From NCBI GenBank assembly GCA_942490825.1, contig CALNYG010000013.1:125281-189280 (forward strand): a stretch of DNA of 64,000 bases, written 5' to 3'. Source of the DNA: Candidatus Moraniibacteriota bacterium. Lineage in GTDB: Bacteria; Patescibacteriota; Minisyncoccia; Moranbacterales; GCA-2747515. Under the pieces are notes generated by a model that saw only the letters and a list, made by a program, of their open reading frames with translations, made no database searches and was not told the origin of the DNA. The translations under genes were made by a program, and so were the position numbers. Each line of letters begins with the position of its first letter. Position 1 is the first letter of the stretch. This document shows positions 24,572 to 59,245 of the stretch, in pieces.

Positions 24572-24680
24572 TTTTAAAGTTGATGGTTATTTATTACTTT
24601 TTGTCAACTTGACATAATTTTTTTGTACTTAAAGTGTGATATAATAAATTTAGAAATAAATACAAACTAAATACAACTTT

Positions 24681-27600
24681 ATGAAAAAAATATTATCAAT
24701 CTTCGTGTTTTTTGTAATAATATTTTTAGGGACATACCATAACGTATTAGCCGCTAATCCAACAATTTCTGCAGTAGAGTTAGTTCCAACACCAACAAAT
24801 GATCCAGAATATACTTTTAATACAGATCAGGAGGGAACAATTACATATGGAGGGGATTGTAGTGCTACTACAGCAACTACAGTAGCAACAATAGGAGATA
24901 ACACAATTACTTTTAGTGGACTTTCAGATGCGACTTATTCAAGTTGTACTGTTATGGTGACTAACACTTCATTGGAAGATTCTAATATTTTAAGTGTTGA
25001 TACTTTTATATTGGAAACAGTTGCTCCAGTATTAACTCAAGTAACTCCAGTTTCAACTCCAACTACAGATACAACTCCAGATTATACTTTTGATACAGAC
25101 GAAGCGGGAACAATTACTTACGGAGGAAGTTGTGCAAGTATTTTGGATGTAAGTGTAGCGACAGCGGGAAATAAGACAATTACCTTTGACAAAACTATTT
25201 TAACAATCCAAGCTGTGGAACCTTTGATAGATGCTACATATTCAGATTGCACAATTAAAGTGACAGATGAAGCTGGAAACATTTCGGAACCTTTAACTGT
25301 AGATTCCTTTACAGTTGAAACAGGGGCTCCAACATTATCTCAATTAGCTCCAATTTCAACTCCAACTAGTGACACAACTCCAAATTATTCTTTTTATACT
25401 GATGAAGCGGGAACAATAAATTATTCAGGAGATTGTGCAAGCACTACTTTAAATGCAAACGCAGGAAATAATACGATTACTTTTGATACGCCTCTATTAG
25501 CGGAGTTACATTCAAATTGTTATATAACCGTAAATGATGGAGATTCTAATTTATCTAATAGTTTGCATGTAAGTGATTTTACCATAAAAGAAGTGCCTTC
25601 AATAAATAATGTAACAGGGGTAATTAATGGAGGAAATTCTATAACTATATCAGGAGCAGATTTTGGAGACAAGTCTGTAGCCGCACCATTGCGTTATGAT
25701 AATTTTGAGGGTGGTACAGCTGATTTAGCAATACCAAGTGATCAACCTGGGGGAGGATGGTCAACAGAATCACATAATGGTACAAACGCTCTTACTTGGT
25801 CAGATGAGACAGTTCGTTTTCCGGGGACATTATCAGCAAAACAATCCTATGATGATGAATTCGCTGGTGCGGGTATTTCTTTGGATAACAGGGATGATGT
25901 GGATACTATTCCCGAGACTAACGAAATGTATGTGTCGGGTTGGTTTTGGTTTGATACCTGGGATGGGCTTACTAACAATACCAAATTCATTAATATGGGA
26001 GTGCCCGATCCAATTCCAGCTGAACATAACGGATGGCAGACAAGACTGGACGGAAATCAAGAGACCGATAATGGACTTTTTTATGCATATATGAGTGATG
26101 ATTGTTCAATAGAGGGGACAAACGGGCAAAAACTTAAATATGAAGATTATCATTCTTTTGAAAATTATTTTCAACCTAATTCGAGTTGGCATAGAATTGA
26201 AACATATTTACGAATAGGATCTGATGGGTATCGAGATATTTATATTGACGGTGTTAAAATAGGAGAATTGATGGGAAATTTCACTTCTAACAATTGTGAA
26301 TTAGAATATGTTCTTATTGGCCATTATTTTCGTTTAGACTATGGTGTTGGGGATCCAACAGGTGTAAGATATTGGGACGAATTATATGTAGACACTACTC
26401 AAGCAAGAGTTGAAATTTGTGAGGATTCTATTTTTTCAAATTGTACTCACAAAGAAATTCAAATTCCTACTTCATGGAATGACATTACAGGAGAAATAGA
26501 GGTTACTTTAAATGAGGGATCATTGGATACATTGGGCGGAAAATATATTTATGTGATAGATTCAGACGGAACAGTTAGTAACAGTTATCTTTTAGATGCT
26601 GACACCACCCCAGATGCATTCACTTTCACCAACATCACAGGTGCAACAACCTCAACCCAATACACTTCAGATACAATTACCGTTGCAGGAATAGATGCAG
26701 GAGCAGACGCAACAATTGAAATCACAACTTGTGATTCAATAGGGACATGTGAATATGAACTTAATAACAGCGGATCATGGACAAGCACATCAGGAACAGT
26801 AAATTTAGGTGATATAGTAAAAGTCAGACAAACCTCATCTTCTAGTTATGGCACTCAAACTGATTTAACTTTAAGTATTGGAGGAGTGGAAGGTACTCAT
26901 TCTGTTACAACTTACATTGACACCACCCCAGATGCATTCACTTTCACCAACATCACAGGCGCAACAACCTCAACCGTCTACACTTCAAACTCAATTACTG
27001 TTGCAGGAATAGATGCAGGAGCAGACGCAACAATTGAAATCACAACTTGTGATTCAATAGGGACATGTGAATATGAACTTAATAACAGCGGATCATGGAC
27101 AAGCACATCAGGAACAGTAAATTTAGGTGATATAGTAAAAGTCAGACAAACCTCATCTTCTAGTTATGGCACTCAAACTGATTTAACTTTAAGTATTGGA
27201 GGAGTGGAAGGTACTTATTCTGTTACAACACTAGCAGATACAACCGCTCCAATAATATCTCAATTAGCTCCAATTTCAACTCCAACTAGTGATACAACTC
27301 CAAATTACATTTTTACTACAGATGAGGCAGGAACAATAAATTATTCCGGAGATTGTACAAGTACTACTTTTTTAAATGCAACTGTAGGAAATAATACAAT
27401 CACTTTCGATGCATTGTCAGTTGATGAACATTCAAATTGTCAAATTTCGGTAACTGATTCAGCAAGTAATATTTCCAATACAGTAGATGTTACTAATTTT
27501 ACAATTAAAAATCCACCTTCAATAAATGATGTGACAGGAGCTTTAATTAATGGAGGCTCTATAACTATATCTGGCTCAGATTTTAGTAATCATGATGACT

Positions 27601-30248
27601 TTGGTGGAGTTGATCCATATTTAAATTATGCGTTCGAAGATATCGAAGCGGGGGTGGTTGCTACAGCTCCAAAAGGCTGGTCTGGTGATGCAAGTTCAAC
27701 TACATTAAATAATCGTAGTGGTAGCACATATAGTGCATTTCATGAAAGAAATGTTGTTGCTGAATATACAGATATTTTTGGAGTAGTTACTACTGATAAT
27801 ACAAGAAATGGTCTTAGAATTGACATGGATGGAATTGCTCCAACTCATAGTTATTTAGCTTCATCTTGGGTACGTTTGTCTGATAATTTTTTAAATTTTA
27901 GCGATTATTCTGGTAATTACATGCGTTTTTTAGCTATGGGTCCTGATACTTTCTATAGTAGAGTAGGGACAGCAATTGATCTTCAAACAGTAACAGGAAA
28001 TGGAATCGATAGTGTTGATCATGGAGATCTAGTCGACTATATGCCTTATGGAGAGTGGCATAGAATGGATATGTGGGTAAGTATCCCAGACGCTACTACA
28101 GGATATGTCGATGAAGTTAAATGGTGGGTAGATGGACAGCTTATACGAGAAGTTAGGCAAACCGATGGACCAAATCAACCTGAATTTGGGGACGTTAGTG
28201 ATCTTAGTAGAATAGATTTTTTACCTTATGTTTCAAACCAAAACGATTCTTCATTTAGCATTCAAACAGACGATCATTTTATCGATTTTACTCAAGCACG
28301 AGTAGAGATTTCAGATAGTGCTACTTGGGATAATACCGCTCAAACACATAAAGAGCTTCAATTAGCTACTTCATGGAATGATATTACAGGAGAAATTGAA
28401 GTTACTTTAAATCAAGGCTCATTTGACACATTAGAAGGAAAATATCTTTATGTAATAGATTCAGATGGAAATGCTAGCGACGGATATTTATTAGAAACTT
28501 CAGACCCAACCCCAGACGCTTTCACTTTTACCGACATCACAGACGCAACAACTTCAACAGTCTACACTTCAAATTCAATCACCGTAGCAGGAATTAACAC
28601 AGATGCAACAATTTCAGTTACAAGTGGAGAATACAGCATTAACAGCGGAACCTGGACAAGTATATCAGGAACGGTAAGTTTAAATGATACGGTTGAAGTT
28701 CGACACACCTCATCAGCTAGTTACAGCACTGAAACTACCACAACTTTAGACATCGGAGGAGTGACTGATATTTACAATGTTACAACTGAAGCAGAACCAG
28801 CAGACACAACCCCAACCCCTTTCACTTTCACCGACATCACAGATGCCACAACCTCAACCGTCTACACTTCAAATTCAATTACCGTAGCAGGAATTAACAC
28901 AGACACAACAATTTCAGTTACAAATGGAGAATACAGTATCAACAGCGGAGCCTGGACAAGTACATCAGGAACAGTAAGTTTAAATGATACGGTTGAAGTT
29001 CGACATACTTCTTCAGCAAATTACAGCACTGAAACTACCACAACTTTAGACATCGGAGGAGTGACTGATATTTACAATGTTACGACTGAAGCGGAGCCAG
29101 TTGACACCACTCCCGACGCTTTCACTTTCACCGACGTAACAGATGCCACAACCTCAACTTTATACACTTCAAACGCAATTACAGTAACAGGAATTAACAC
29201 AGACGCAACAATCTCAGTTACAAGTGGAGAATACAGCATCAACAGCGGAACATGGACAAGCACATCAGGAACAGTAAGTTTAAATGACACAGTTGAAGTT
29301 CGACACACCTCATCAGCTAGTTACAGCACAGAAACTACCACGACTTTAGATATCGGAGGAGTTTCTGATATTTACAATGTTACGACTGAAGCAGAGCCAG
29401 CAGAACCAGTCGAGCCAGAAGTTCCAACTGATCCAATAGAGCCAATAGATCCATCAGAACCGTTAAATCCAGTAACTCCAATCGCACCAATTACACCAAA
29501 TGATCCAGAAGCTGATGAAGATGGATCAATAGGAAACACCATTTGGAATGACGAAAATAAAAATGGAAAACAAGATAATGACGAACCAGGAATTGAAAAT
29601 ATTAGAGTTAAATTAATTTTAGCAGGATCTGATAATGATTTTGACACAGATGATGAAATTTGGAGAACTGATACTAATCACAATGGACATTATCTTTTTG
29701 AAAATCTTCCAGAAGGAAAATATAGAGTGATAATTAAAGAAGAAGATCTAACAGATTGGACTCAAACCTATGATCCAAGTCATAGTGAAAATATGAATAA
29801 TCAGTTAACTTTAGATTTAGATGAAAATGATGAATATACTAAAGCTGATTTTGGGTATGTGAAAAAAAGTAATGATAATTTAGTGGAATATAATAACAGT
29901 TTATTAAATAATACTTACACAGAAACAACTATTGCTAATGATGATGTTGCAGTAAATTCAGATACAGATAATTTAGATTTAGTAAATTTAAACGATGTTA
30001 TCGAGAATAAAAATGTAGAGAAAAACAAAGTTATTGATGATGTTGTAGATAAGGTGGATGATAACAGAAAAGAAGAAAATGAGTTGTTTGCTGAGTATTC
30101 TGATTTTACCAGTAGTAAAGATGAGATAAGTACTGATAACAAAACAGAAAGTAGTGAAGTTATTAAATATGTAGTAGGATCTTTGATAGGCGCAGCTTCT
30201 GTACTTTTGTTATTTTGGTTTTTTAAGAAAGATGAAAATTTAAATTAA
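24681..30248 (+). CDS. Giant repetitive cell-surface protein (1855 aa) with an SdrD B-like/Cna B domain and a C-terminal transmembrane anchor
   Basis: Signal peptide, Thr/Ser-rich beta-domain repeats, a proline-rich linker (EPAEPVEPEVPTDPIEPIDP), an SdrD B-like segment (GNTIWNDENKNGKQDNDEPGIENIRVKL...GKYRV) and a C-terminal hydrophobic anchor. Confidence 0.8.
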   Translation: MKKILSIFVFFVIIFLGTYHNVLAANPTISAVELVPTPTNDPEYTFNTDQEGTITYGGDCSATTATTVATIGDNTITFSGLSDATYSSCTVMVTNTSLEDSNILSVDTFILETVAPVLTQVTPVSTPTTDTTPDYTFDTDEAGTITYGGSCASILDVSVATAGNKTITFDKTILTIQAVEPLIDATYSDCTIKVTDEAGNISEPLTVDSFTVETGAPTLSQLAPISTPTSDTTPNYSFYTDEAGTINYSGDCASTTLNANAGNNTITFDTPLLAELHSNCYITVNDGDSNLSNSLHVSDFTIKEVPSINNVTGVINGGNSITISGADFGDKSVAAPLRYDNFEGGTADLAIPSDQPGGGWSTESHNGTNALTWSDETVRFPGTLSAKQSYDDEFAGAGISLDNRDDVDTIPETNEMYVSGWFWFDTWDGLTNNTKFINMGVPDPIPAEHNGWQTRLDGNQETDNGLFYAYMSDDCSIEGTNGQKLKYEDYHSFENYFQPNSSWHRIETYLRIGSDGYRDIYIDGVKIGELMGNFTSNNCELEYVLIGHYFRLDYGVGDPTGVRYWDELYVDTTQARVEICEDSIFSNCTHKEIQIPTSWNDITGEIEVTLNEGSLDTLGGKYIYVIDSDGTVSNSYLLDADTTPDAFTFTNITGATTSTQYTSDTITVAGIDAGADATIEITTCDSIGTCEYELNNSGSWTSTSGTVNLGDIVKVRQTSSSSYGTQTDLTLSIGGVEGTHSVTTYIDTTPDAFTFTNITGATTSTVYTSNSITVAGIDAGADATIEITTCDSIGTCEYELNNSGSWTSTSGTVNLGDIVKVRQTSSSSYGTQTDLTLSIGGVEGTYSVTTLADTTAPIISQLAPISTPTSDTTPNYIFTTDEAGTINYSGDCTSTTFLNATVGNNTITFDALSVDEHSNCQISVTDSASNISNTVDVTNFTIKNPPSINDVTGALINGGSITISGSDFSNHDDFGGVDPYLNYAFEDIEAGVVATAPKGWSGDASSTTLNNRSGSTYSAFHERNVVAEYTDIFGVVTTDNTRNGLRIDMDGIAPTHSYLASSWVRLSDNFLNFSDYSGNYMRFLAMGPDTFYSRVGTAIDLQTVTGNGIDSVDHGDLVDYMPYGEWHRMDMWVSIPDATTGYVDEVKWWVDGQLIREVRQTDGPNQPEFGDVSDLSRIDFLPYVSNQNDSSFSIQTDDHFIDFTQARVEISDSATWDNTAQTHKELQLATSWNDITGEIEVTLNQGSFDTLEGKYLYVIDSDGNASDGYLLETSDPTPDAFTFTDITDATTSTVYTSNSITVAGINTDATISVTSGEYSINSGTWTSISGTVSLNDTVEVRHTSSASYSTETTTTLDIGGVTDIYNVTTEAEPADTTPTPFTFTDITDATTSTVYTSNSITVAGINTDTTISVTNGEYSINSGAWTSTSGTVSLNDTVEVRHTSSANYSTETTTTLDIGGVTDIYNVTTEAEPVDTTPDAFTFTDVTDATTSTLYTSNAITVTGINTDATISVTSGEYSINSGTWTSTSGTVSLNDTVEVRHTSSASYSTETTTTLDIGGVSDIYNVTTEAEPAEPVEPEVPTDPIEPIDPSEPLNPVTPIAPITPNDPEADEDGSIGNTIWNDENKNGKQDNDEPGIENIRVKLILAGSDNDFDTDDEIWRTDTNHNGHYLFENLPEGKYRVIIKEEDLTDWTQTYDPSHSENMNNQLTLDLDENDEYTKADFGYVKKSNDNLVEYNNSLLNNTYTETTIANDDVAVNSDTDNLDLVNLNDVIENKNVEKNKVIDDVVDKVDDNRKEENELFAEYSDFTSSKDEISTDNKTESSEVIKYVVGSLIGAASVLLLFWFFKKDENLN
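26601..27236 (+). repeat. Two tandem copies of a roughly 318-bp intragenic repeat, more than 97% identical
   Basis: DTTPDAFTFTNITGATTST...LSIGGVEGT repeated back to back. Confidence 0.7.
28501..29400 (+). repeat. Three tandem 300-bp intragenic repeats
   Basis: TTPDAFTFTDITDATTSTVYTSNSITVAGINTD...NVTTEAEP repeated three times. Confidence 0.7.
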
Positions 30249-30373
30249 AAAAATATTAGGTTATAAAATATATTATTTATGCAAATATTCTTGAATTTTA
30301 TTTTTTTAAATTGATTGATAATAGGATTATTATTTTATATGTATTTAATTTATTTTTGAAATTACATGACTTA

Positions 30374-30408
30374 AAAAACACTTTCAAATTATTGAGAGTG
30401 TTTTTTGA
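30374..30408 (+). terminator. Hairpin terminator (AACACTtTCAA...TTGAgAGTGTT)
   Basis: 11-bp stem with one mismatch plus a T6 run, after the stop of the giant protein gene. Confidence 0.5.
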
Positions 30409-30488
30409 TGATCTAATATTTTGACGTGCAACTTCCCATCTGATAAACTGAAGAAAGCTAGATTTTTAAAATAATTTTCAATAAAAAT

Positions 30489-33144
30489 ATGTCTATATTT
30501 TCAAAACTGTTTGGTTCAAATGAAAGTCAAGTTAAAAAATACAATCCGATCGTTGATCAGATAAATGATTTTGAGGATGCAATAAAAAAATTAACCGATG
30601 AAGAAATAAAAGAAAAAACTGCATCTTTTCAAAAGATAATTCAGAATGAAGAAAAAACATTAGATGAAATTTTGCCGGAAGCTTTTGCAGTTGCTCGGGA
30701 GGCAGCTCGAAGAACTTTAGGAGAGTGGGCTCATAACACTCAGTTGATTGGTGGGATGATTCTTCATGAAGGAAAAATTACCGAAATGAAAACAGGTGAA
30801 GGTAAAACTTTAACTTCTGTTCTTCCAATTTATCTTAATGCCTTAACTGGAAAAGGAGTTCACTTAGTTACGGTGAATGATTATTTAGCAAAACGTGATT
30901 GTAATTGGATGGGTGTTGTTTATGAAAAATTAGGTTTACAGGTAGCTTGTATTACACACGAAGGAGGATTTCTTTACGAAGCGAATACAGTTGATCGAGA
31001 TGAGGTTGATATTGAGATGGAAAACTTAAAAGCAGTTACAAAAAAAGAAGCTTATAATTCTGACATTACTTACGGAACAAATAATGAATTTGGTTTCGAT
31101 TATTTGCGTGATAATATGGCACAGTCTGAGGAAAGATTGTCGCAGCGAGAATTACATTTTGCGATCGTAGATGAAGTCGATTCAATTTTAATTGATGAGG
31201 CGAGAACTCCGTTAATTATTTCTGCACCAGACAATGAGTCAACTAAACTTTATGAAAAATTTGCACAAGTTGTTCCTAATTTGCAAATCGAAAAAGATTA
31301 TAACGTTGATGAAAAAACTCGAAATGTAACTTTGACTGACGAGGGAATTCAGAAAGTAGAAAATCTTTTAGGAGTGGGAAATATTTATGAAGAGGGGAAA
31401 GTTCAATATGTTCATCATTTGGAACAATCTTTGAAAGCACATGCTCTTTTTGTGAGGGATAAGGATTATATGGTAAAAGATGGTGAAGTTATTATTATCG
31501 ATGAGTTTACTGGTCGAGCGATGGAAGGGCGACGATATTCAGATGGTCTTCATCAGGCGATTGAAGCGAAAGAAAAAGTGGCGGTTCAGCGTGAATCAAA
31601 AACGTTGGCGACAATTACTTTTCAGAATTATTTTCGTATGTATGACAAGTTAGCGGGTATGACAGGAACAGCGGTAACCAGTGCAGAAGAGTTTCAAAAA
31701 GTTTATAAATTGGATGTTATCATTGTTCCGACTAATAGGGAGATGGCTAGAAAAGATTTAGCGGATGTTGTTTATAAGAATGAGAACGGAAAATTTAAAG
31801 CGATTGTTGAAAAAATTAAAGAATTGTATGAAAAAGGTCAACCTGTTTTAGTAGGCACAGTGGCGATTGAAAAGTCTGAGTTGTTGAGTAATATGTTGAA
31901 AAAAGCAAAAATTTCTCATAGCGTTCTTAATGCAAAATATCATGAGAAAGAAGCTCAGATTGTGGCTAAAGCTGGTTTTAAAGGTTCGGTAACAATTGCA
32001 ACAAATATGGCGGGACGTGGTACGGATATTAAATTGGGTGAGGGTGTGAAAGAAGTTGGTGGTCTTTATATTATTGGAACTGAACGTCATGATGCTCGAC
32101 GAATTGATAATCAGTTGCGAGGACGTTCCGGACGACAGGGTGATCCTGGGACAACTCAATTTTATATTTCTTTGGAGGATGAATTGATGCGACGTTTTGG
32201 TGGTGATAGATTGAAAGGTATTATGGAAAAAATTGGTTTTGACGAAGATCAGCCAATTGAAAATAAAATTATTTCTAAACAAATTGAAGGTGCTCAATCT
32301 AAAATTGAAGGATTTAATTTTGATGCTCGTAAACATGTTTTGGATTATGATGATGTTGTTAATAAGCAACGAGAAGTTATTTACGGTAGACGGAGAAATA
32401 TTTTGGAAAAATTAGATTCTAAAGAAGAAATTGTAAAAATGTTTGATGAGGAGGTTAATGAGATTGTGGATGCTTATACTAATTTAAGTAGACATGATTG
32501 GAATGAATCAGAAATTATTAAAGAAATTAAGGCGATCGCTCCTATTTCAGAAAATTTTGAAACAAAATTAAAAGATATTTTTGATGATGGTAATAAAGAT
32601 GATAAGGAAGTTATTGAAAGCACAAAGGATCTTTTGATTGAAGAATTGAAAGTGGCTCATACTAAAAAAGCAGAAGAAAATGGGGAAAATGCAATGCGGG
32701 CGATTGAGCGTTCTATTTTAATGCAAACTATTGATCAGCATTGGATGAATCATTTAGATGCGATTGATCATATGCGACAGGGAATTGGTTTGCGGGGTTA
32801 TGGTCAACAGGATCCTTTGATTGAATATAAAAGGGAGGCTTTTGGGATGTTTAATCAGCTTTTGGGAAATATTAGAAATACGGTTTTGCATACTATTTTT
32901 AGGGCGAGTGTTGTTAGTGATCAGAATCAGAGTGCAGTGACTGAATTGGCAAAAAATATGAATTTTTCTGGGGCGAATAGTAATCCTGAGCAATTTGCTC
33001 AGGCGGCTGGAGAGGAAAATAAGCAGATGATGTCTAAAATGCCAAAAATTGAAAAAGCCTGTTCATTCTGAAAAGTTGGTTGGACGAAATGATCCTTGTT
33101 CTTGCGGGAGTGGGAAGAAGTTTAAGAAATGTTGTGGACGGTAG
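30489..33144 (+). CDS. secA: Preprotein translocase ATPase SecA; the C-terminal zinc-binding tail is in the +1 frame
   Basis: DEAD-like motor and the preprotein-binding and helical scaffold domains. The ORF stops at 33071, but the +1 frame continues with [23 protein letters not shown] (the canonical SecA Zn finger). The frames join by a 1-nt change in the A5 run at 33052-33056. Confidence 0.85.
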
Positions 33145-33167
33145 AGATTCAAGTTTGCATGATATTT

Positions 33168-33290
33168 TGCAGGAACGGGTTTTACAACTCGTTCCACATG
33201 TTTATCTTTAGTTTATAGATAAAATTTAAAATATAATTTTTTTACAATTCAGAAACGTTTCGGAGCCAGTTGTAAAACTGGTTCCTGCAG
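33168..33290. repeat. Paired-palindrome unit U1 (H1 GGAACGGGTT-ttac-AACtCGTTCC at 33172-33195, H2 GGAgCCAGTT-gtaa-AACTGGtTCC at 33262-33285)
   Basis: Two 24-nt hairpin palindromes 66 nt apart with outer TGCAGGAAC...GTTCCTGCA inversion. 98% identical to U3 at 38472-38594. Confidence 0.6.
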
Positions 33291-33408
33291 AAGTTGTGGA
33301 AAATAGATTTGTGTAATACTGATAGTGCTATTGGTATGCAATAAATTTTTAAGTTTTTTATAGGGAAGTCATGGAATTTTATTCTGTGGCTTTTTTGTTT
33401 TGGTGGGG

Positions 33409-33437
33409 TTGACAGGTTTTAGTTTATATGATATGAT
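33409..33437 (+). promoter_or_regulatory. Consensus sigma70-like promoter (TTGACA, 17-nt spacer, TATGAT), now separated from its gene by the IS30 insertion
   Basis: Perfect -35 hexamer, 17-nt spacer and a 5/6 -10. Identical to the copy at 38713-38741. Confidence 0.55.
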
Positions 33438-33454
33438 TGGGTTTCAAATGAGAA

Positions 33455-34527
33455 CCTACCCGCAATAGTCAATCCGACCACCCTATTTTTCATCAACAAC
33501 GCGTAAGCGTTGTTTTTCTTTTTCTAAAGATTCTGTTGGAGATAAATAATCTAAACATTTCATATATCTTTCATTACATTTATCTTGAATAGCTTTAATA
33601 TATTCTTCATCATATTTTGAAATGTCACTTCCTTTAGGAATATATTTTCTAATATATTTATTTACATTTTCCACGCTTCCTTTTTCCCATGAATGATATG
33701 GATGACAAAAGTAAATTGGGATTTTTAAAATTGTTTCTAACGTTTTATGCATTCTAAATAATATATCATTATCTAAAGTTAGAGTTTTCATTTCTGGAAA
33801 TTCTTTTTTGATTTTTAATAATTTTTCGTGAACATTATCTATTGTTACGTCTAATATTTGTTCAATGAATACATATCTAGTTTTTCTATCAATTAACACT
33901 AATAGATAGCCCGTTCCACTTTTTCCTGAAACAATGAAGTCTCCTTCAACATCTCCAATTCTCTCTCTATTTTCCGCTATTTCAGGGCGTTTATCAATGA
34001 ATTTCCTATCTTTTAGCTTCTTTACTTTTATTCTCTTTTTTTCCATATTTTAATCTCTTTATTTTCTTTTTGATTAGCTTTCCATAATCGCTATCTAAAA
34101 AATCATAAATTGTATTTTTTGAAACGTAAATCAAATTTTTTTCTTGATATTTTAATCTTCCTGAGATTGCTTCTGGCGATTGATTATCGCATAATTTAGC
34201 TTCTATAAATTTTCTCAATTTAGAATTACCAATTATCTTAGATCCTCTGAAACTTGCATAATATCTTTTTACATATGATTTATGATTTGCTTTTTCTGGA
34301 TCATATTTGTTTTTTACTGAATTTTTTTTGATTTCATCAATGATGCTTGAATGTGATCTTTTCAGTATTTTTCCTATTTTTCTTTTTGAATATTTTTTAT
34401 CTAAATAATATTTAATTTCTCTTCTTTCTGCTTTACTTATATGTTTAAATGTTTTTTTTCATTAAAAAATTATTAAAATTTATCTTTTTATTTTAACAGA
34501 GTGGTCGGATTCAAAAAGGAATGTAGG
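33455..34527 (-). mobile_element. IS30-family insertion sequence (1073 bp) with a GAA target-site duplication
   Basis: Imperfect 26-bp terminal inverted repeats (CCTAC...AATCCGACCA at both ends). Flanked by GAA at 33452-33454 and 34528-34530. The uninterrupted target is visible in the paralogous repeat at 38745-38760 (caaatgaGAAatttacgg). Confidence 0.75.
33483..34440 (-). pseudogene. IS30-family transposase, split by a frameshift into a helix-turn-helix part (34440-34006) and a DDE part (34046-33483)
   Basis: The N-terminal part (KAERREIKYYLDKKYSKRKIGKIL...) and the C-terminal catalytic part (...HSWEKGSVENVNKYIRKYIPKGSDIS...) overlap by 41 nt in different frames. The ATG is followed by an A8 run. 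Confidence 0.7.
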
Positions 34528-34657
34528 GAAATTTACGGTTAGTTTGTAAATTGAACATTTGATTAGTTCTTTGTTAATTTTCGAGTAGGGAAATAGTTTC
34601 TTTATTCGATTTTTTTTGAAACCTTTACGGCGAGGAAATCGCCAAAGGAATGTAGTT

Positions 34658-35155
34658 ATGATAAAAAATATTTCTCTTTTCTGTCTTTTCTCTTTTCTTT
34701 CTACTCTTTTATCAAACTTCGCTATAGCAGACGCTGGGTACGACGATTACCCATCCTCTTTATTTTTAATAGAAGGAGACACAGGAAGCGAGTTTGAACC
34801 TCTTCGAATAAAGGGAGGAACTTTCGATGAGCGTCTTCTAGTAGGAAAAGTAGAGAAGTTTGAAGTAGAAAGTGGGGCGTTCATAATAAAGTGTTCTTTT
34901 AGTGTTATGGATAACGCTACTGGAGATACTCTAAGTTGTCGCCCGAATAATGGTTCACCTTCTTTTTTCCGTCTTACTAAAAAAGTAGGTAAAAAGGGCA
35001 TGAGAATCGTAGAGGAAATAGACATTATTTCAAGTCCTGCTATGTATTATGAAAATAGTAAGACGGCGGGTACAGGATCTACCGTAGAAGATAATGTATA
35101 TATTTCTCCTGATAGCACAGTATTCGGGCCCACAGGAATCAATATCGGGAACTAA
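34658..35155 (+). CDS. Small secreted protein, cassette gene 1
   Basis: Signal peptide MIKNISLFCLFSFLSTLLSNFAIA/DA. The leader is conserved with the gene at 38878. Confidence 0.55.
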   Translation: MIKNISLFCLFSFLSTLLSNFAIADAGYDDYPSSLFLIEGDTGSEFEPLRIKGGTFDERLLVGKVEKFEVESGAFIIKCSFSVMDNATGDTLSCRPNNGSPSFFRLTKKVGKKGMRIVEEIDIISSPAMYYENSKTAGTGSTVEDNVYISPDSTVFGPTGINIGN

Positions 35156-35168
35156 CAGAGTTCCCACA

Positions 35169-35235
35169 GAAGGCTTTAGCAATTCGATTTATTTCGAACG
35201 TATAATGTACACGCTAAGGCCTTCTTTCTTTTTAA
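35169..35235 (+). terminator. Cassette terminator hairpin (GAAGGCTTTAGC, 32-nt loop, GCTAAGGCCTTC, then a T-rich tail)
   Basis: 12-bp stem with one mismatch, immediately after the stop. Paralogous copy at 39197-39262. Confidence 0.55.
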
Positions 35236-35303
35236 GAGCTTAAAATATATTTTCTAGATTTTAAAAAGAATTTATATTTACACAATCAAAACTTTTTACA
35301 AGA

Positions 35304-35415
35304 ACAATTTTTACAACCCGTTCCAAACGTTTCTATTTTATACACATCATAAATTAAAAATAAATAAATTTTCATAATTCAAAAACATTTCAGAACCAGT
35401 TGTAAAACTAATTCC
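35304..35415. repeat. Paired-palindrome unit U2 (degenerate, b-type spacer)
   Basis: TTTTTACAACCCGTTCC ... CAGAACCAGTTGTAAAACTAATTCC. The spacer matches U4. Confidence 0.45.
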
Positions 35416-35497
35416 TACGGTTTGATTATATTATCTAAAAATATCAAGTACTTCTATTTTACTTAAATTATAAAATTAAAATAAATCTATAGAGCAG

Positions 35498-35554
35498 AAT
35501 GATCCTTGTTTTTGCGAGAGTAGGGAGAAGTTTAAGAATAATTGTAGTAAATAG
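35498..35554 (+). other. Degenerate duplicate of the last 57 nt of secA (zinc-finger tail: NDPCFCESREKFKNNCSK*)
   Basis: aatgatccttgtttttgcgagagtagggagaagtttaagaataattgtagtaaatag, compared with the secA 3' end at 33095-33144 (about 45 of 57 identical). Confidence 0.55.
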
Positions 35555-35621
35555 ATTTAAAAATGATCTCGTGTTAAAATAAATATAATAATAAAATAAA
35601 TATTAAAAATAAAAAAGAAAT

Positions 35622-36995
35622 ATGAAAAAAAGTATTATAGTTGCTATTGCTATAATTGTATTACTCGCAACCCTAGGTTTTTTTGTAATGAAAAGTATCC
35701 AAAATAACAACAAGGTTTCAAAAAGCAAAACAAATACAACTTCCGTAACAAATACCGCTAATGTATCTCAAGGTACAGCTTCTAATCAAAAAGTAACTTC
35801 TTCAACTTCAACTACAAATACAAATTCCACTTCAGTTAAAACTAATTCTGAAGGTGAAAATATCGATGTTGAATGCAATCAAATTTATAACGATTTGTTC
35901 AAAGAAGAAAAGAAAGATTTTACAGAATGTGGTGTGTTTGCCAAAGATATATCCTGTGATGGTGAGAGTGCACCAAAAGAAGAAAAACAAAATAATTTAG
36001 TGATTATCTTCGATTCTTCTGGATCAATGGCTGGTCAAATCGGTGGAAAAGCTAAAATTGACATAGCAAAAGAAGCAGTCTGGAAGTTTTTAGATAGCAT
36101 GAAAGATTCTAAAACTAAAGTAAGCGTCGTTGTTTATGGACATAAGGGAAGTAACAATTCTTCTTCTAAACAACTTTCTTGTAGCAGTATCGATGAAGCT
36201 TATTATTTTGGAGATTTAGATGTTGCAGTTGCTAAAAATAAAATTAGTGAATTTAAACCAACTGGATGGACTCCAATTGCGAGTTCTTTAGATAAAGCTA
36301 AAGATATTTTAGTTAAAAATACTAAAGATGGTGATGTTAATTCAATATTACTAATTAGTGATGGTGAAGAAACTTGTGATGGTAATCCTATATCTAAAGC
36401 TAAAGAGATTCGAGATTCAACGGGGATAACTACTAGTGTAATTGCTTTTGATGTTACGGGAAATGTGCAAGCTCAATTGAAAAGTATATCAGAAAATGGA
36501 GGGGGAACTTTTCATGCGGCTAATAGTTTAGAGGAAATGTTTGCGGCGTTGGATGCTGAGAATGATAAGTTTTGGGAAAAATATGAGTGTGAGAGTGAGC
36601 AGTGGAGTGAATGGTTAGATAAAAGTTTAGATACAGTATTTGTTGGAAATAGTTGTGCTCAAAACTTGTTTTGGGAAAAGAACGGTATGATCGATATGGG
36701 GATTGAAAGCTTGGGTTATAATGATGTTGCAGATAGTTGTAAACAAAAAATAATTAAAGATTATCGGGAGAATAGGTATAAGGCTATTCGAGAGCAGTTG
36801 ATTAAAAATTATATTGCTAATTTTATTAGATCAAATAAAATTATAGATGATAGTGAAATATGGACTGATGATATTGATTATGAAGGTGATATGATGAGAG
36901 ACTTGAAAAGTAATTGGAATAATCAGTGGGATAATGATATTGATTGGAATGCTATTCAGCAACAGATCAAAACTGAAATAGTTAACAATAGATAA
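35622..36995 (+). CDS. Secreted von Willebrand factor A (VWA) domain protein
   Basis: N-terminal anchor or signal, a Ser/Thr-rich linker, and a DSSGSM MIDAS motif with the downstream T and D residues. Confidence 0.7.
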   Translation: MKKSIIVAIAIIVLLATLGFFVMKSIQNNNKVSKSKTNTTSVTNTANVSQGTASNQKVTSSTSTTNTNSTSVKTNSEGENIDVECNQIYNDLFKEEKKDFTECGVFAKDISCDGESAPKEEKQNNLVIIFDSSGSMAGQIGGKAKIDIAKEAVWKFLDSMKDSKTKVSVVVYGHKGSNNSSSKQLSCSSIDEAYYFGDLDVAVAKNKISEFKPTGWTPIASSLDKAKDILVKNTKDGDVNSILLISDGEETCDGNPISKAKEIRDSTGITTSVIAFDVTGNVQAQLKSISENGGGTFHAANSLEEMFAALDAENDKFWEKYECESEQWSEWLDKSLDTVFVGNSCAQNLFWEKNGMIDMGIESLGYNDVADSCKQKIIKDYRENRYKAIREQLIKNYIANFIRSNKIIDDSEIWTDDIDYEGDMMRDLKSNWNNQWDNDIDWNAIQQQIKTEIVNNR

Positions 36996-37102
36996 TATTA
37001 ACAAATTCTACATTATAAATTGTAGACCTAAAAGTAAATTTAATTTATAATATAGATTGTAGGTCGATAAAGTAAATTTAATTAAATTAATAAAATAAAA
37101 AT

Positions 37103-37639
37103 ATGTCAAAGTTTAAAGTGGGTATGTCTTTAACTGCATTTTTAGCAGCTGTAGTTTTGTCAGGTTGTGGTGTTAATGTTGATGATGGGGCTGATTCAGT
37201 TAAAGTTAATACTGATGGTATTGAGGTAAAATCTGATGGTTCTACTGTTGAGGTTAAAGATGGTATGAACAGTGTTAATGTTAATTCTGATGGTAGTACT
37301 GTGGATGTTAGTGGCGGTAGTGTAAAACTTGAAACTAATGATGCTAAAGTTAATGTTAACGGTGGTAATGTAGATGTTGATTCAAAGGATACTACTGCTA
37401 CTAAAACAACTACTACAACTACAACGACAAATCCAAGTTCAAGCTCAAGTACAAATACAAGTTCAAGTACAATCAGTCCTTCAAGTAATGCTAATGTTAA
37501 TATTGATGCTGAGGATGCTAAGGTTAAGACTGATGGAAGTAATGTCAATATTGATACTGATGATGCTAAGATTCAGACTGATGGAGATGGTAATGTTAAG
37601 GTTCAGGCTCCAGGGGTTAATTTGAATGTTGGTTACTAG
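37103..37639 (+). CDS. Repetitive lipoprotein
   Basis: LSGC lipobox. Repeated DG(S/T)xVxV motifs and a poly-Thr tract. Confidence 0.55.
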   Translation: MSKFKVGMSLTAFLAAVVLSGCGVNVDDGADSVKVNTDGIEVKSDGSTVEVKDGMNSVNVNSDGSTVDVSGGSVKLETNDAKVNVNGGNVDVDSKDTTATKTTTTTTTTNPSSSSSTNTSSSTISPSSNANVNIDAEDAKVKTDGSNVNIDTDDAKIQTDGDGNVKVQAPGVNLNVGY

Positions 37640-37657
37640 GTTTTAGGGGTTTATTTT

Positions 37658-37692
37658 GAAAAAGCCATGGGATTTTCTCATGGCTTTTTTGT
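37658..37692 (+). terminator. Hairpin terminator (AAAGCCATG...CATGGCTTT plus T7)
   Basis: 9-bp stem plus a T-run, 19 nt after the stop at 37639. Confidence 0.5.
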
Positions 37693-37705
37693 TTGGTTTG
37701 TGGGG

Positions 37706-37734
37706 TTGACAGGTTTTGGATTATGTGATATTAT
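37706..37734 (+). promoter_or_regulatory. Third copy of the cassette promoter (TTGACA, 17-nt spacer, TATTAT)
   Basis: GTGGGGTTGACAGGTTTTgga is conserved with 33401 and 38705. Lies upstream of the gene at 37905. Confidence 0.5.
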
Positions 37735-37904
37735 TGGGTTTCAAATGAGTTATTGTAATCAATTATTTATTTGAAAATGTTCTTTTAAATCACTCTCTAT
37801 ATTTTTAAAGTTTACTTCACTGATTATGTTTTTTATTTTTTAGTAGAAGATATGATTGGTGAAGTATAACTTTTCTTTTCTTGGCTCGGGAGGGCTAGAT
37901 TATT

Positions 37905-38288
37905 ATGACAAATTACATTTTTTTAATTTTTCTTTTTTTTACTGCTCTTTCTCCTGTTGATTCTTTCGCAGCCGATCCTGGTTGTGGAAGCGTTATTACA
38001 AATTCCTATTGTGAAGACGGGAGATGTATTTCAGGAAGTTGTTTGCAGTTACAATTGCAAACAAATGTAGCAGGTGGAGTAGAAAAATCGTCTAAAGTTG
38101 TAAAAATTTCCAGCCATTTGCTAGCTAAAATGTATGAAATTGGCAGGAAAAGAGATGAAGAAAAAGCGAAAGAAGATCTTGCTCGTAAAGAGCAAAAAGA
38201 GGCAGATCGCAAAGCCTGCGATGGTGGTGATAGGCGAGCATGTATAAGAAATGCTTTGCTTATACAAATAGGAAATAGTATGAAGTGA
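37905..38288 (+). CDS. Small secreted protein
   Basis: Signal peptide (FAADPGCG), Cys-rich N-terminus, Lys/Glu-rich C-terminus. Confidence 0.5.
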   Translation: MTNYIFLIFLFFTALSPVDSFAADPGCGSVITNSYCEDGRCISGSCLQLQLQTNVAGGVEKSSKVVKISSHLLAKMYEIGRKRDEEKAKEDLARKEQKEADRKACDGGDRRACIRNALLIQIGNSMK

Positions 38289-38471
38289 TCTCGACCCAGC
38301 GTTAGGAATATTTAACGCTGGGTTCATTTTTTTAAAATTACAATTTTTACATAAACAAAAATATCCAACTATCTTCAGAGATAGTTTTTTTATTACCAAA
38401 AATATTTTGCAGAAATAATTTTAAAATATAAAACTTTATTTTTACTTTTCATTAGAGATAAAAAATATTTT

Positions 38472-38594
38472 TGCAGGAACGGGTTTTACAACCCGTTCCA
38501 CATGTTTATCTTTAGTTTATAGATAAAATTTAAAATATAATTTTTCTGTATTTTAGAAACGTTTCGGAACCAGTTGTAAAACTGGTTCCTGCAG
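38472..38594. repeat. Paired-palindrome unit U3 (perfect H1 at 38476-38499 and perfect H2 at 38566-38589)
   Basis: GGAACGGGTTttacAACCCGTTCC and GGAACCAGTTgtaaAACTGGTTCC, both perfect 10-bp stems. The cores GTTTTACAAC and GTTGTAAAAC are reverse complements. Confidence 0.6.
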
Positions 38595-38712
38595 AAGTTG
38601 TGGAAAATAGATTTGTGTAATACTGATAGTGCTATTGGTATGCAATAAATTTTTAAGTTTTTTATAGGGAAGTCATGGAATTTTATTCTGTGGCTTTTTT
38701 GTTTTGGTGGGG

Positions 38713-38741
38713 TTGACAGGTTTTAGTTTATATGATATGAT
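38713..38741 (+). promoter_or_regulatory. Cassette promoter (TTGACA, 17-nt spacer, TATGAT)
   Basis: Identical to 33409-33437. Followed by the conserved leader and the cassette gene at 38878. Confidence 0.55.
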
Positions 38742-38877
38742 TGGGTTTCAAATGAGAAATTTACGGTTAGTTTGTAAATTGAACATTTGGGTAGTTCTTT
38801 GTTAATTTTTGGGTAAGAAACTGTTTTTTACTCGATTTATTTTTAATTCTACGGCAAAAGCCAAGGGAATTTCTGTT

Positions 38878-39189
38878 ATGAAAAAAAATATTTCACTTTT
38901 CATTTTCTTATTGTTTTTTTCTTATTTCTCCGCTCCTCCCGCTATGGCGGATATCGAAGACGGACTGACTTACAGTCAGCTCGTGAAAGCAGGAATAATC
39001 ACTAACAAAAAAATTGATAGTAATATTTACAAAATTGATAGTGGAAAAAAAACGGATACTGCTAAAGATGCTACGGCGGAAGTGGTTAATGAAGTAAAAA
39101 TTCAAAATAGTAGTTCTACTACTGGAAATTCAGGGGTCTGCATAGGAGCAGGCCCATGCGGAAATAATAGAATGATCATGATCAGGTGA
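38878..39189 (+). CDS. Small secreted protein, cassette gene 2
   Basis: Signal peptide MKKNISLFIFLLFFSYFSAPPAMA/DI. The leader and terminator are conserved with cassette gene 1. Confidence 0.5.
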   Translation: MKKNISLFIFLLFFSYFSAPPAMADIEDGLTYSQLVKAGIITNKKIDSNIYKIDSGKKTDTAKDATAEVVNEVKIQNSSSTTGNSGVCIGAGPCGNNRMIMIR

Positions 39190-39196
39190 TCCCACA

Positions 39197-39262
39197 GAAG
39201 GCTTTAGCAATTCGATTTATTTCGAATGTACAATGTACACGCTAAGGTCTTCTTTCTTTTTA
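39197..39262 (+). terminator. Cassette terminator hairpin, copy 2
   Basis: GAAGGCTTTAGC...GCTAAGGtCTTC plus a T-rich tail. Confidence 0.5.
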
Positions 39263-39327
39263 AGAACTCGAAAGAGATTTTCTAGATTTTAAAAAGAATT
39301 TATATTTACACAAATAAAAATCTTTAT

Positions 39328-39447
39328 AGGAATAGATTTTATAACCCGTTTGAAGCCTTTCTTTTTTATATATATCATAAATTAAAAATAAATAAATTTT
39401 CATAATTCAAAAACATTTCAGAAGCAGTTGTAAAACTAGTTCCTGCT
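39328..39447. repeat. Paired-palindrome unit U4 (degenerate, b-type)
   Basis: ttttATAACCCGTTtgaa ... CAGAAGCAGTTGTAAAACTAGTTCC. Confidence 0.4.
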
Positions 39448-39531
39448 TTACTTGATTTTTTGTAATCTCTCAAATCTTTACACTTATTATTTTCAAAAGC
39501 ATAAAAGCAGGGGTTGGGTTTTACAATTTTC

Positions 39532-39650
39532 GCTAGGAACGGGTTTTACAACCCGTTCCGGATGTTCATCTCTAATTCACAAATAAATTTCAGAATATAT
39601 TTTTTCACAAATCAGAAACTTCACGGAGCCAGTTATAAAACTAGTTCCTG
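39532..39650. repeat. Paired-palindrome unit U5 (perfect H1 at 39536-39559, degenerate H2 at 39626-39648)
   Basis: GGAACGGGTTttacAACCCGTTCC ... GGAGCCAGTTataaAACTAGTTCC. Confidence 0.5.
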
Positions 39651-39759
39651 TAATATTTACAAATTATCGATTGCATTTTTAAAAATATTAGACTATCCTT
39701 ATAGATAGTCTTTTTAAATTATTTATAAAAAGACAAAAATTAACAATTTATACAAAAAC

Positions 39760-41601
39760 ATGAAATATCCAATATTAGATAAAATAAATTATCCAAAAGA
39801 TTTAAGAAAATTACCAGTCGAAGAATTAGAAAAATTATCCGAAGAAATTCGCCAATTCTTAATTCAATGCGTTTCCAAAACAGGCGGACATTTCGGATCA
39901 AATTTAGGCGTAGTCGAATTAACAGTCGCTTTACATTATGTTTTCGACACACCAAAAGATTTACTCGTCTGGGACGTCGGACACCAAACCTATCCCCATA
40001 AAATATTAACAGGAAGAAAAGAACAACTTTGCACAATTCGACAAAAAGGAGGATTAGCACCTTTTCCAAAACGAACAGAAAGTAAATACGATTCTCTCGG
40101 CGTTGGACACACAAGTACTTCAATCAGTGCGGCAGTAGGAATGAGTATTGCCAATCGAGATAAAAAAAATCCGCCACAAGTAGTAGCTGTAATTGGCGAT
40201 GGAGCATTAGGTGGAGGAATGGTTTTTGAAGCTTTAAATCATGCAGGTGATGTTGGTACAGATATGCTAGTAATTTTAAATGATAATAAAATGTCGATTT
40301 CACCAAATGTCGGTGCGATTGATAAATATTTAACACGACTAATTTCTTCACAAAAATATTTAAAAGTACGTCGAAAAGGTAAAAAAATTCTTTCCCAATC
40401 ATCTTCGAGAATTCATAAACTTGTTCAGCGGGTAGAAAAATACGCAAAAGGAATGATTACACCTGGAACTTTATTTGAGGAATTAGGCTTTGGTTATTAT
40501 GGTCCGATTGATGGTCACGATACAAAAATATTAGTTAAAGTTTTAAATAATCTTAAAAAAGTAAAAGGTCCAAAATTTTTGCACATCGTTACTGAAAAAG
40601 GTAAGGGTTGTGAATTTGCAGAAAGTGACGATTTTTCACTTCATGCAGTTACGCCATTTAATCCAGAAACTGGAGAGGCTTTGAAAAAAAGTAGTTCAAA
40701 AAGTTTCACTGACGTGTTTTCAGAATGGATTGTTGAAATAGGAAAAAAAGATGAGGATCTTCATGCAATTACACCAGCAATGTGTTCAGGTTCAGGTTTA
40801 ACAAACTTTCAAAAAACATTTCCGCAACGTTTTCACGATGTGGGAATTGCCGAACAGCACGCAGTAACTTTTGCGGCGGGATTAGCTTGTCAGGGGAAAA
40901 AGCCAGTGGTGGCAATTTATTCTTCATTTTTGCAGCGGGCTTATGATCAGTTGATTCATGATGTGGCAATTCAAAATTTAAATATTCTTTTTGCTGTGGA
41001 TCGCGCGGGATTAGTTGGTCCGGATGGAGCGACGCATGCAGGAAGTTTTGATATGGCGTTTGCACGAAATATTCCTAATTTAACAATTCTTGCACCTGCT
41101 GATGAAAAAGAATGTGAAGAAATGTTAGAATGGGGTTATAACTATGAAGGTCCAGTTATTGTTCGTTATCCTCGTGATAAAGCTATTGCAATTGATGAAA
41201 ATAAATTTCAATCAATCGAATTAGGGAAATCCGAGATAGTTCGAAAAGGAAAAAAAGTAGCGATTTTAACATTTGGAACGACTTTAAATATTTGCAAAAA
41301 TTTAGCAGAAAAATTTGATGTAACTTTAGTGAATATGCGTTTTGTGAAACCTTTGGATAAGGAGACTGTTCGAGAATTAGCAAAAGATCATGATTCTTTT
41401 TTGACAATTGAAGAGGGTTCAGTGATGGGTGGTGCAGGAAGTGCGGTTGGTGAGTTTGTGTCTCAGGAAGGTTTAAATGTTAAAGTTAAAAATATTGGTT
41501 TGCCAGATAAATTTTTGGAACATGGAAGTCGAGAAGAATTATTAGCTGAAGCTGGTTTGGATGAAGCTGGTGTTGAGGAAGTTTTGAAGAGTTTAATTTA
41601 A
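39760..41601 (+). CDS. dxs: 1-deoxy-D-xylulose-5-phosphate synthase
   Basis: Thiamine-diphosphate-binding GDG motif and the transketolase-like domains. The N-terminus GGHFGSNLGVVELTVALHYVF is diagnostic. Confidence 0.9.
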   Translation: MKYPILDKINYPKDLRKLPVEELEKLSEEIRQFLIQCVSKTGGHFGSNLGVVELTVALHYVFDTPKDLLVWDVGHQTYPHKILTGRKEQLCTIRQKGGLAPFPKRTESKYDSLGVGHTSTSISAAVGMSIANRDKKNPPQVVAVIGDGALGGGMVFEALNHAGDVGTDMLVILNDNKMSISPNVGAIDKYLTRLISSQKYLKVRRKGKKILSQSSSRIHKLVQRVEKYAKGMITPGTLFEELGFGYYGPIDGHDTKILVKVLNNLKKVKGPKFLHIVTEKGKGCEFAESDDFSLHAVTPFNPETGEALKKSSSKSFTDVFSEWIVEIGKKDEDLHAITPAMCSGSGLTNFQKTFPQRFHDVGIAEQHAVTFAAGLACQGKKPVVAIYSSFLQRAYDQLIHDVAIQNLNILFAVDRAGLVGPDGATHAGSFDMAFARNIPNLTILAPADEKECEEMLEWGYNYEGPVIVRYPRDKAIAIDENKFQSIELGKSEIVRKGKKVAILTFGTTLNICKNLAEKFDVTLVNMRFVKPLDKETVRELAKDHDSFLTIEEGSVMGGAGSAVGEFVSQEGLNVKVKNIGLPDKFLEHGSREELLAEAGLDEAGVEEVLKSLI

Positions 41602-51416: not shown

Positions 51417-51441
51417 TTTTATTAATTTTTGCAAATTTTCC

Positions 51442-51640
51442 AGACATGTCATTCCGGAAGATATAATTTGTTCAAGAGCGTAGTCCTGTTACCATACGGT
51501 ACAGGGCGTAGCGATTGAATACAAATTAATCTGTTCAGTATCTACACGTTAAGTTTAAAGAAGTCTAAGAGTACATCTTTCTTTCGAGATCCTGAAAAAT
51601 ATTTTTCCGCTTTGCTACAAAATATTTTTCAGGATGACAC
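51442..51640. repeat. Miniature inverted-repeat family 1, full-length copy (19-bp termini AGACATGTCATTCCGGAAG ... TTTTCAGGATGACA)
   Basis: About 199 bp. Collinear with 57214-57403 and 59246-59433. Contains an extra 28-nt hairpin insert (TCCTGTTACCATACGGTACAGGGCGTAG). Confidence 0.55.
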
Positions 51641-52107: not shown

Positions 52108-52127
52108 TGTAAAATTATTTTTTGACT

Positions 52128-52156
52128 GTAGAAACAAGGCAATGCCTTGTTTCTAC
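52128..52156 (+). terminator. Hairpin terminator (GTAGAAACAAGGC-aat-GCCTTGTTTCTAC)
   Basis: Perfect 13-bp stem. Part of a 65-nt element shared with the rbr 3' region. Confidence 0.6.
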
Positions 52157-52187
52157 GAATTAGGAAATAATTTTAAAATTTTTAGTT

Positions 52188-55445: not shown

Positions 55446-55519
55446 GTAATCAGTAACTTGTAACCAGTTTTGAAGAATTGCTTTTTGACTGTAGAGATGA
55501 GGTAGTGTCTTGTCTCTAC
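55446..55519 (+). terminator. Two successive hairpins after rbr (AACTGGTAA...TTACCAGTT plus T4, and GTAGAGATGAGG...CTTGTCTCTAC)
   Basis: The second hairpin and its flanks (TTTTTGACTGTAGA...CTACGAAT(T/C)AGGAAATAATTTT) are paralogous to the dfx terminator element. Confidence 0.45.
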
Positions 55520-55550
55520 GAATCAGGAAATAATTTTTAATAAAATATGT

Positions 55551-57183: not shown

Positions 57184-57203
57184 GTGCTCGCCGCACGGGC
57201 TTT
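57184..57203 (-). promoter_or_regulatory. GC-rich motif, copy 6, in reverse orientation immediately after the tyrS stop
   Basis: The reverse complement reads AAAGCCCGTGCGGCGAGCAC plus T5. This is the only minus-orientation copy. Confidence 0.45.
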
Positions 57204-57213
57204 TCACTATTTT

Positions 57214-59227: not shown

Positions 59228-59245
59228 TATTATTAAAAATCCCCC

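Follow-up and report, generated by a model that had tools for sequence, protein, structure and literature searches.

At rhs, CDI and T6SS effector-immunity loci, displacement of the C-terminal (3′-end) part of a gene has been proposed to occur via homology-facilitated illegitimate recombination (HFIR) (PMC5361080). A duplicated 3′ end is also found at a prophage attachment (att) site; in E. coli K-12, icd and the icdC pseudogene flank e14 (PMC13626634). Among repeats, REPINs and BIMEs are pairs of inverted REP palindromes (PMC3116915, PMC3337134). Here, we describe a locus in which the 3′ end of a housekeeping gene, secA, is present twice, and we compare it with these systems. "The window" denotes the whole 64-kb stretch of DNA that was analyzed, from the genome of an uncultured Candidatus Moraniibacteriota bacterium (Patescibacteria/CPR) with a G+C content of 31.8%.

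A second copy of the secA 3′ end

The features of the region are given by window coordinates, with the strand in brackets where one applies:

30489–33144 (+): secA, from the ORF list and its translation; the assembled ORF stops at 33071
33088–33144 (+): copy A, the last 19 codons and stop of secA, encoding the SEC-C zinc-finger tail, coding potential intact
33145–33164: spacer of 20 nt from the secA stop to R1
33163–33294 (+): R1, palindromic repeat of ~125 nt
33165–35422 (+): module M1, comprising R1, a promoter-like site, an orphan ORF with its terminator, and R2 (from blastn self-comparison)
33455–34527 (−): IS30-family insertion sequence inside M1, bearing terminal inverted repeats and flanked by a 3-bp duplication of its target (GAA)
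34616–35155 (+): ORF179, small, with probable start ATG at 34658 and a signal-peptide-like N-terminus
35291–35422 (+): R2, degenerate copy of the palindromic repeat
35419–35497: AT-rich stretch of 79 nt from R2 to copy B; its right end is a novel junction
35498–35554 (+): copy B, decayed non-coding remnant of the secA end, lacking a start codon
35622–36995 (+): gene for a VWA-domain protein, the first gene 3′ of copy B
38467–39451 (+): R3, module M2 (38469–39451, paralogue of M1, with ORF126 at 38809–39189) and R4
38467–38598 and 39319–39451: R3 and R4, the palindromic repeats bounding M2
39525–39656 (+): R5, the last repeat, just before dxs
39652–41601 (+): conserved dxs upstream region and dxs, the right border of the island, with a terminator-like hairpin at 39690–39711

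The assembled secA ORF is interrupted near its end by a run of five A residues in GAAAAAGCC (within 33050–33059), where a +1 shift puts the zinc-finger tail out of frame. The two close relatives that were sampled, L001 and L004, both have four A residues at this run and read through it in frame, and A-run frameshifts also split proS (17976), porA (59946) and, twice, the IS30 transposase (~34040 and ~34455). On these grounds, the secA frameshift is most likely a homopolymer-length assembly error and secA not a true pseudogene; the resemblance of the other split genes to such errors makes the point relevant to annotators of this assembly. The secA stop used in the preliminary description holds for the corrected frame, in which the tail ends at 33144, and does not hold for the ORF as assembled, which ends at 33071.

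The last 57 nt of secA (copy A) align without gaps to 35498–35554 (copy B), with 45 of the 57 positions identical (79%) and 2354 nt separating the two. The next best match to the secA-tail 57-mer in the window, both strands considered, is 32/57, and the maximum in 100 shuffled windows was 33/57; the chance expectation for a 45/57 match is 7.5e-11 (binomial, 128,000 positions). When the tails of ~65 other Moraniibacteriota and Parcubacteria secA loci were compared with their own flanks, no duplicated end was found within the 10 kb covered (maximum 34/57). Copy B is confirmed as a genuine duplicate of the secA end. The alignment and the shuffled-sequence test thus bear out what the preliminary description had reported, a near-copy about 80% identical lying 2.35 kb downstream of the gene. 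No second remnant of the secA end was found in the window, and there is none at the dxs-side edge of the island.

The repeat has sharp edges. Neither upstream of its Asn codon nor downstream of its stop does similarity between the copies rise above that of shuffled sequence, and conceptual removal of module M1 reveals no extension above shuffles. Within the repeat, identity is uneven, with 37/41 over the first 41 nt and 8/16 over the last 16 nt (Fisher P=0.002), and two perfect 13-nt runs are shared.

The two copies differ in their coding state. The copy A peptide begins AATGATCC, and its nucleotide sequence matches the L001 tail at 52/57 positions and the L004 tail at 50/57. The conceptual peptide of copy B, NDPCFCESREKFKNNCSK followed by a stop, has lost one zinc ligand; copy B lies outside any ORF, with an in-frame TAA at 35477–35479, 18 nt 5′ of it. 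The 12 differences between the copies fall on codon positions one, two and three in the ratio 5/4/3, and eight of them are GC-to-AT changes in copy B against one AT-to-GC; both the spread over codon positions and the AT bias are as expected of neutral decay where the genome is AT-rich. The lost zinc ligand, together with the lack of secA sequence upstream, argues that copy B is not a strain allele of secA.

The tails closest to copy B are those of L001 (46/57) and copy A itself (45/57), while 56 others reach at most 40/57, and copy B contains a clade-specific TTT (Phe) codon. This points to an origin in the same or a very close lineage. The Jukes-Cantor distance between copies A and B is 0.25, whereas the fourfold-site distances, which count both lineages, are 0.28 between the window and L001 and 0.58 between the window and L004. 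The duplication may therefore be dated on the order of the L001 split or earlier, with a wide error, as the estimate is drawn from 12 sites. The spacers that follow the stops of A and B were compared with those of L001 and L004 for signs of which copy is native, and the best match was not significant (P=0.17); we infer that copy B is the resident end.

A variable spacer between secA and dxs

L004 (JAGLWU010000010.1) is the closest genome, with 85% nucleotide identity in secA. Its homology with the window ends at 33145, the base after the secA stop, and restarts at 39652, at the right end of R5 and 108 nt before dxs; between secA and dxs it has a single unrelated ORF of 217 aa. The L001 contig is 1.2 kb long, with 92% identity to the window in its secA end, and has yet another ORF, starting 26 nt past the stop. 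Because the window, L004 and L001 each carry different genes after the secA stop, the secA–dxs spacer is a hypervariable hotspot, and 33145–39651 (6.5 kb) is a lineage-specific island within it. NUDIX and SecDF genes are the usual downstream neighbors of secA in the wider phylum. Among 83 related loci, none has the VWA gene near secA (0/83) or a homologue of any island protein there. An empty site with the remnant sequence directly after secA, which the preliminary description proposed to look for, was found neither in those 83 loci nor in the two close relatives, and no locus among them has secA directly before the VWA gene; in the two close relatives, it is the ORF of 217 aa (L004) or the other ORF (L001) that follows secA. 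Just 5′ of secA, an 1855-aa protein with an SdrD_B domain is encoded at 24681–30248. This gene has no counterpart at that position in L004 (homology gap at window 24571–30431), so that secA is flanked by variable DNA on both sides.

The block between the two secA ends (33145–35497) consists of 20 nt, module M1 with its IS30 element, and 79 nt of AT-rich DNA, in agreement with the earlier account of one cassette plus an IS30 insertion. When its two A-run frameshifts are repaired, the IS30 transposase matches NF033563 with 205.6 bits (cut-off 80); the element has the DDE transposase, the inverted repeats and the 2–3 bp target duplication that define the family, and the GAA duplication is deduced from the paralogue M2, which is uninterrupted at the insertion point. 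Minus the insertion sequence, the flanked DNA measures 1.28 kb and carries no mobile-element genes. M1 contains a near-consensus promoter-like site found by promoter scan (TTGACA-17-TATGAT with TG, 33409–33437), preceded by a terminator-like hairpin. ORF179 has no homologue other than itself among 5.8 billion public proteins.

Units of this kind recur in the island. Three paralogous combinations of a terminator and a near-consensus promoter (33353–33452, 37649–37754 and 38657–38761) drive small ORFs (34658–35155, 37905–38288 and 38809–39189) with similar signal-peptide-like N-termini and unrelated mature parts. Homology between M1 and M2 ends in mid-signal-peptide and restarts right after the stop codon, an arrangement that resembles a swappable secreted-protein cassette. 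Another island ORF, ORF178 (37103–37639), contains degenerate tandem repeats of ~21–54 nt (37163–37585) and has no family match.

The repeats that bound the modules, here called R, have an AT-rich center with a 24-nt palindrome on either side (GGAACGGGTT-TTAC-AACCCGTTCC); the two palindromes are inverted relative to each other, and each has a 10-bp stem and a 4-nt center, TTAC or GTAA. R3 folds as two local 10-bp hairpins (z = -7), while R2 and R4 are decayed. Across eleven R arms, pairing holds for 85% of stem cells, and three pairs are changed on both sides. Within the window, the R copies are clustered between secA and dxs (33.1–39.7 kb), with fragments at ~38399–38445 and ~35452–35486 and one at ~60.2 kb. 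No copy of R was found in 83 related loci or in viral contigs; metagenome contigs yielded only unrelated single hairpins, and R has no match in Rfam. For the island as a whole, Rfam gave one sub-threshold match to RAGATH-25 (E=0.14), and nothing in the window reached a gathering score. The fragment at ~60.2 kb is a palindrome like an R arm, GGAACGGATT-GTAA-AATCCATTCT (60239–60280), preceded as in R by AGAAACGTTTCG; it lies in the Cys-rich linker of porA (ORF 59949–60803), the gene for the alpha subunit of pyruvate:ferredoxin oxidoreductase, and could be either an exapted fragment of R or a coincidental match.

Comparison of M1 with M2 shows that the two modules share sequence in patches. Identity is 97.6% in the R1/R3 block, R1 adjoining secA and R3 lying 5.3 kb downstream; it drops to 79% across the 5′ UTR and the part that encodes the signal peptide, is absent in the mature coding part, and is 89% from the terminator to R2/R4. 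The similarity stops exactly where the outer R repeats end, with unrelated sequence on the far side, which argues against a simple tandem duplication of the secA tail together with its module. The pattern (~98, 79, 0 and 89%) is that of a recombination mosaic. The event that produced A and B long predates both the 97.6%-identical R1/R3 block and the insertion of IS30; the age of the remnant, the near-identity of R1 and R3 and the mosaic structure of the modules together imply that the interior was remodeled after the duplication and that what separates A from B today is not the pristine insert. If M1 is itself a later insertion, then A and B formerly lay only ~99 nt apart.

Other repeats occur elsewhere in the window. 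A GC-rich intergenic motif, AGCCCGTGCGGCGAGCAC, stands upstream of several genes (~1858–1877, 7212–7231 and 63015–63034) and is also present in L004 at ~8080–8098 and 14608–14626. One intergenic repeat family precedes the desulfoferrodoxin, yidD-fusion and porA genes (51425–51606, 57199–57362 and 59229–59341), and a second, terminator-like family follows the desulfoferrodoxin and rubrerythrin genes (52108–52202 and 55471–55565); these families may serve redox genes as common regulatory leaders or terminators.

Possible routes to the displaced end

A direct repeat of a gene end around DNA that relatives lack indicates that an insertion took place at the secA end and stranded one copy of that end. 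The most economical reading of copy B is that it is a displaced 3′ end, since it is a real, non-coding and decaying duplicate, the DNA it helps to flank is absent from the closest relatives, and the variable region starts at the secA stop. The preliminary description had likewise taken copy B for the original secA end, left behind as a decaying remnant, and on this point its account is supported.

As to route, we tentatively favor displacement of the former secA 3′ end by a homology-anchored insertion of the HFIR type with later remodeling of the interior, to which we assign a probability of roughly 0.45. Incoming DNA from a close relative, carrying its own secA end, would have paired by homology with the resident secA to give the left joint, and its non-homologous far end would have joined illegitimately just 5′ of the resident NDPC codons to give the right joint (35497|35498). 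secA would have kept an intact end, copy A, while the resident copy B, no longer under selection, would have decayed towards A+T. The interior between A and B was remodeled later; it holds an R-bounded module, into which IS30 was then inserted. More generally, recombination that uses the flanking core genes as anchors would exchange the content of the spacer. The enzymology that we infer for these steps is RecA together with an illegitimate join, with no dedicated integrase.

The secA gene itself contains a trace of exchange. A maximum chi-square analysis of site patterns among the window, L001 and L004 places a breakpoint ~215 nt before the secA stop, at ~32930 (permutation P=0.0006); the site patterns change from 98:15:13 to 21:18:10 across it, with similar site variability on both sides, and 12 window-unique substitutions are clustered in alignment columns 2501–2549 (~window 32990–33040). 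A sliding-identity scan of secA shows no abrupt change by itself. In one of the three lineages, the history of the last ~215 nt of secA therefore differs from that of the remainder of the gene. This implies that homologous exchange ending inside the secA 3′ end occurs in this clade, which is a requirement for swapping the downstream spacer. Branch-length arithmetic fits somewhat better if L001, and not the window, is the lineage that recombined, and for this reason the breakpoint supports the mechanism in general only. Two features expected under HFIR are therefore present, namely a conserved upstream anchor with an orphaned 3′ end beyond the new DNA, and an exchange breakpoint within the anchor gene. 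At the upstream edge of copy B, there is no homology 5′ of 35498; the arm of an attP site would look alike.

Pfam scans that covered the island and all ORFs of the window from 140 aa upward found no recombinase of the tyrosine or serine type (Phage_integrase, Resolvase), no reverse transcriptase and no Y1/RAYT transposase, and a tRNA scan found no tRNA gene in the window. The mobile-element genes of the window are limited to the IS30 copy and an ISNCY-family transposase (4983–6275), which is intact (NF033594, 369 bits). At 44253–46028 lies the gene for a TraG/VirD4-like coupling protein with a treble-clef zinc finger; this gene and the ISNCY transposase represent possible DNA-transfer functions in a CPR genome.

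The strongest competitor is integrase-mediated (Campbell-type) integration of a circular element with a secA-end-like attP, in which A and B would be attL and attR and the integrase and most other genes would since have been lost. A direct repeat that begins in a gene, appears to reach its stop codon and flanks DNA that relatives lack is a classic att-site signature, which tells against the homology-anchored reading; at this locus the 57-nt repeat stands at both borders of the block with sharp edges, the two perfect 13-nt runs are common to both copies, and the geometry is like that of icd/icdC around e14 (PMC13626634). Loss of an old integrase gene is conceivable, and a cognate attP would contain the AATGATCCTTGTT segment. 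Against this route, neither the island nor the 64-kb window encodes a tyrosine or serine recombinase, the flanked DNA is small and free of mobile-element genes apart from the later IS30, and the two close relatives offer no empty site. Recurrent use of the site is likewise not seen: there is no duplicated tail in ~65 loci (best second-tail match 34/57 in 10-kb flanks), integrase is absent from the 25 commonest Pfam families among 111 ORFs directly downstream of secA, and the secA tail matches no viral contig as an attP. In the literature, we found no report of a secA 3′-end att site, nor of integrons in Moranbacteria. We consider this route unlikely. The absence of recombinase genes, the tiny flanked DNA without mobile features, the lack of recurrent site use and the breakpoint in secA are what lead us to favor the homology-anchored route over it. 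Site-specific integration at the secA end, as first proposed for this locus, is accordingly not borne out, and the cognate integrase whose existence it implied was not found in the 64-kb window. Protein-gene 3′ ends may be unusual att sites, as was also remarked, but such targets are known, icd/icdC around prophage e14 being one (PMC13626634). Should an integrase come to light, secA would count as a new att target and the element as one of few integrative elements described in Patescibacteria.

Copy B might instead be a passenger, the clipped edge of a horizontally acquired segment (B, the VWA gene, ORF178 and ORF127) that came after secA in its donor, the resident tail not having recombined. 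Copy B does lie directly before the VWA block, and that block is absent from the closest relatives. Such a segment would have had to land by coincidence within 2.4 kb of the resident secA end (~100 nt without M1), and none of the 83 loci has a VWA homologue near secA; we see a small chance of this. Duplication of a larger local stretch with the secA end in it, either of the tail with its module in tandem or of a whole second secA later deleted to 57 nt, finds an echo in the duplicated modules M1 and M2. The sequence after B is unlike that after A, however, the sequence after R2 is unlike that after R4 or R5, and the module duplication stops exactly at the R ends, so that we rate its prospects as slight.

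The full model of the preliminary description, in which the array grew by serial site-specific insertions at the secA end with the newest copy beside the gene, draws on the one displaced end and on the five R repeats and two paralogous modules between secA and dxs. Serial growth conflicts with the single remnant and its absence near the dxs border, with modules that end at R ends and not at secA-like sequence, and with R repeats that lack the features of attC sites in a window without an integrase. The proposed order, newest next to the gene, is contradicted by an old remnant (Jukes-Cantor distance 0.25) lying beyond an R1 block 97.6% identical to its paralogue R3, and by the mosaic structure of the modules. 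We hold this model to be very improbable. More speculative still, and to our minds a long shot, is the idea that, in this CPR lineage, small integrase-less modules mobilized in trans via their R repeats have a dedicated landing site in the part of secA that encodes the zinc finger; this would be an integron-like capture locus with a housekeeping gene as its anchor, and the remnant would be its first footprint.

Chance similarity, an assembly chimera or a template/variable pair of a diversity-generating retroelement (DGR) have a negligible claim: the genome is AT-rich, its assembly has homopolymer errors and 8/12 mismatches have A in copy B, but the chance expectation is ~1e-10, and a DGR pair is rejected by the 4/12 mismatches that do not have A in copy B and by the lack of a reverse transcriptase in the window.

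Comparison with known systems

The attC sites of integrons have the cores RYYYAAC (R″) and GTTRRRY (R′) and form a single imperfect hairpin with extrahelical bases. The secA–dxs island is like integron cassette arrays and CALINs in that its small genes are co-directional and set apart by repeats with internal dyad symmetry. In contrast to attC sites, the R repeats end in CAGGAAC...GTTCCTG, and R3 folds as two local 10-bp hairpins and not as one attC-like stem, so that inspection and folding rule out attC identity; inspection found neither the attC cores nor the single hairpin with extrahelical bases, there is no intI in the window, and the modules have their own strong predicted promoters. R corresponds in its layout to REPINs and BIMEs, with two inverted REP-like palindromes and a spacer, a length of ~125 nt, intergenic position and decaying copies. 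It differs from them in being limited, within the 64-kb window, to five copies plus fragments in 6.5 kb, and the window encodes no RAYT/Y1 transposase.

The icd/icdC arrangement around e14 shares with this locus an intact gene end at one border, a pseudo-3′ end at the other, and imperfect direct repeats. Unlike e14, which has its own integrase and excises, the secA block is 1.3 kb plus an insertion sequence and contains no recombinase, phage or conjugative gene.

The closest parallel to the homology-anchored reading is displacement at rhs, CDI and T6SS loci. The differences are that secA is a housekeeping anchor whose end was replaced by an equivalent end and not by a new toxin domain, and that the locus has one orphan end, with no apparent immunity-type selection to keep it. 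What the loci have in common is a conserved upstream anchor, an incoming new 3′ end with its downstream genes, an old end orphaned downstream, and downstream content that differs among close relatives. Copy B is a dated footprint of lineage-specific gene gain in a very small CPR genome, at a place where new DNA enters right after the stop of a core gene, where the 3′ end of that gene anchors the exchange and where the three closest genomes differ; it marks a recombination hotspot by a scar of a known kind and not by a new mechanism.
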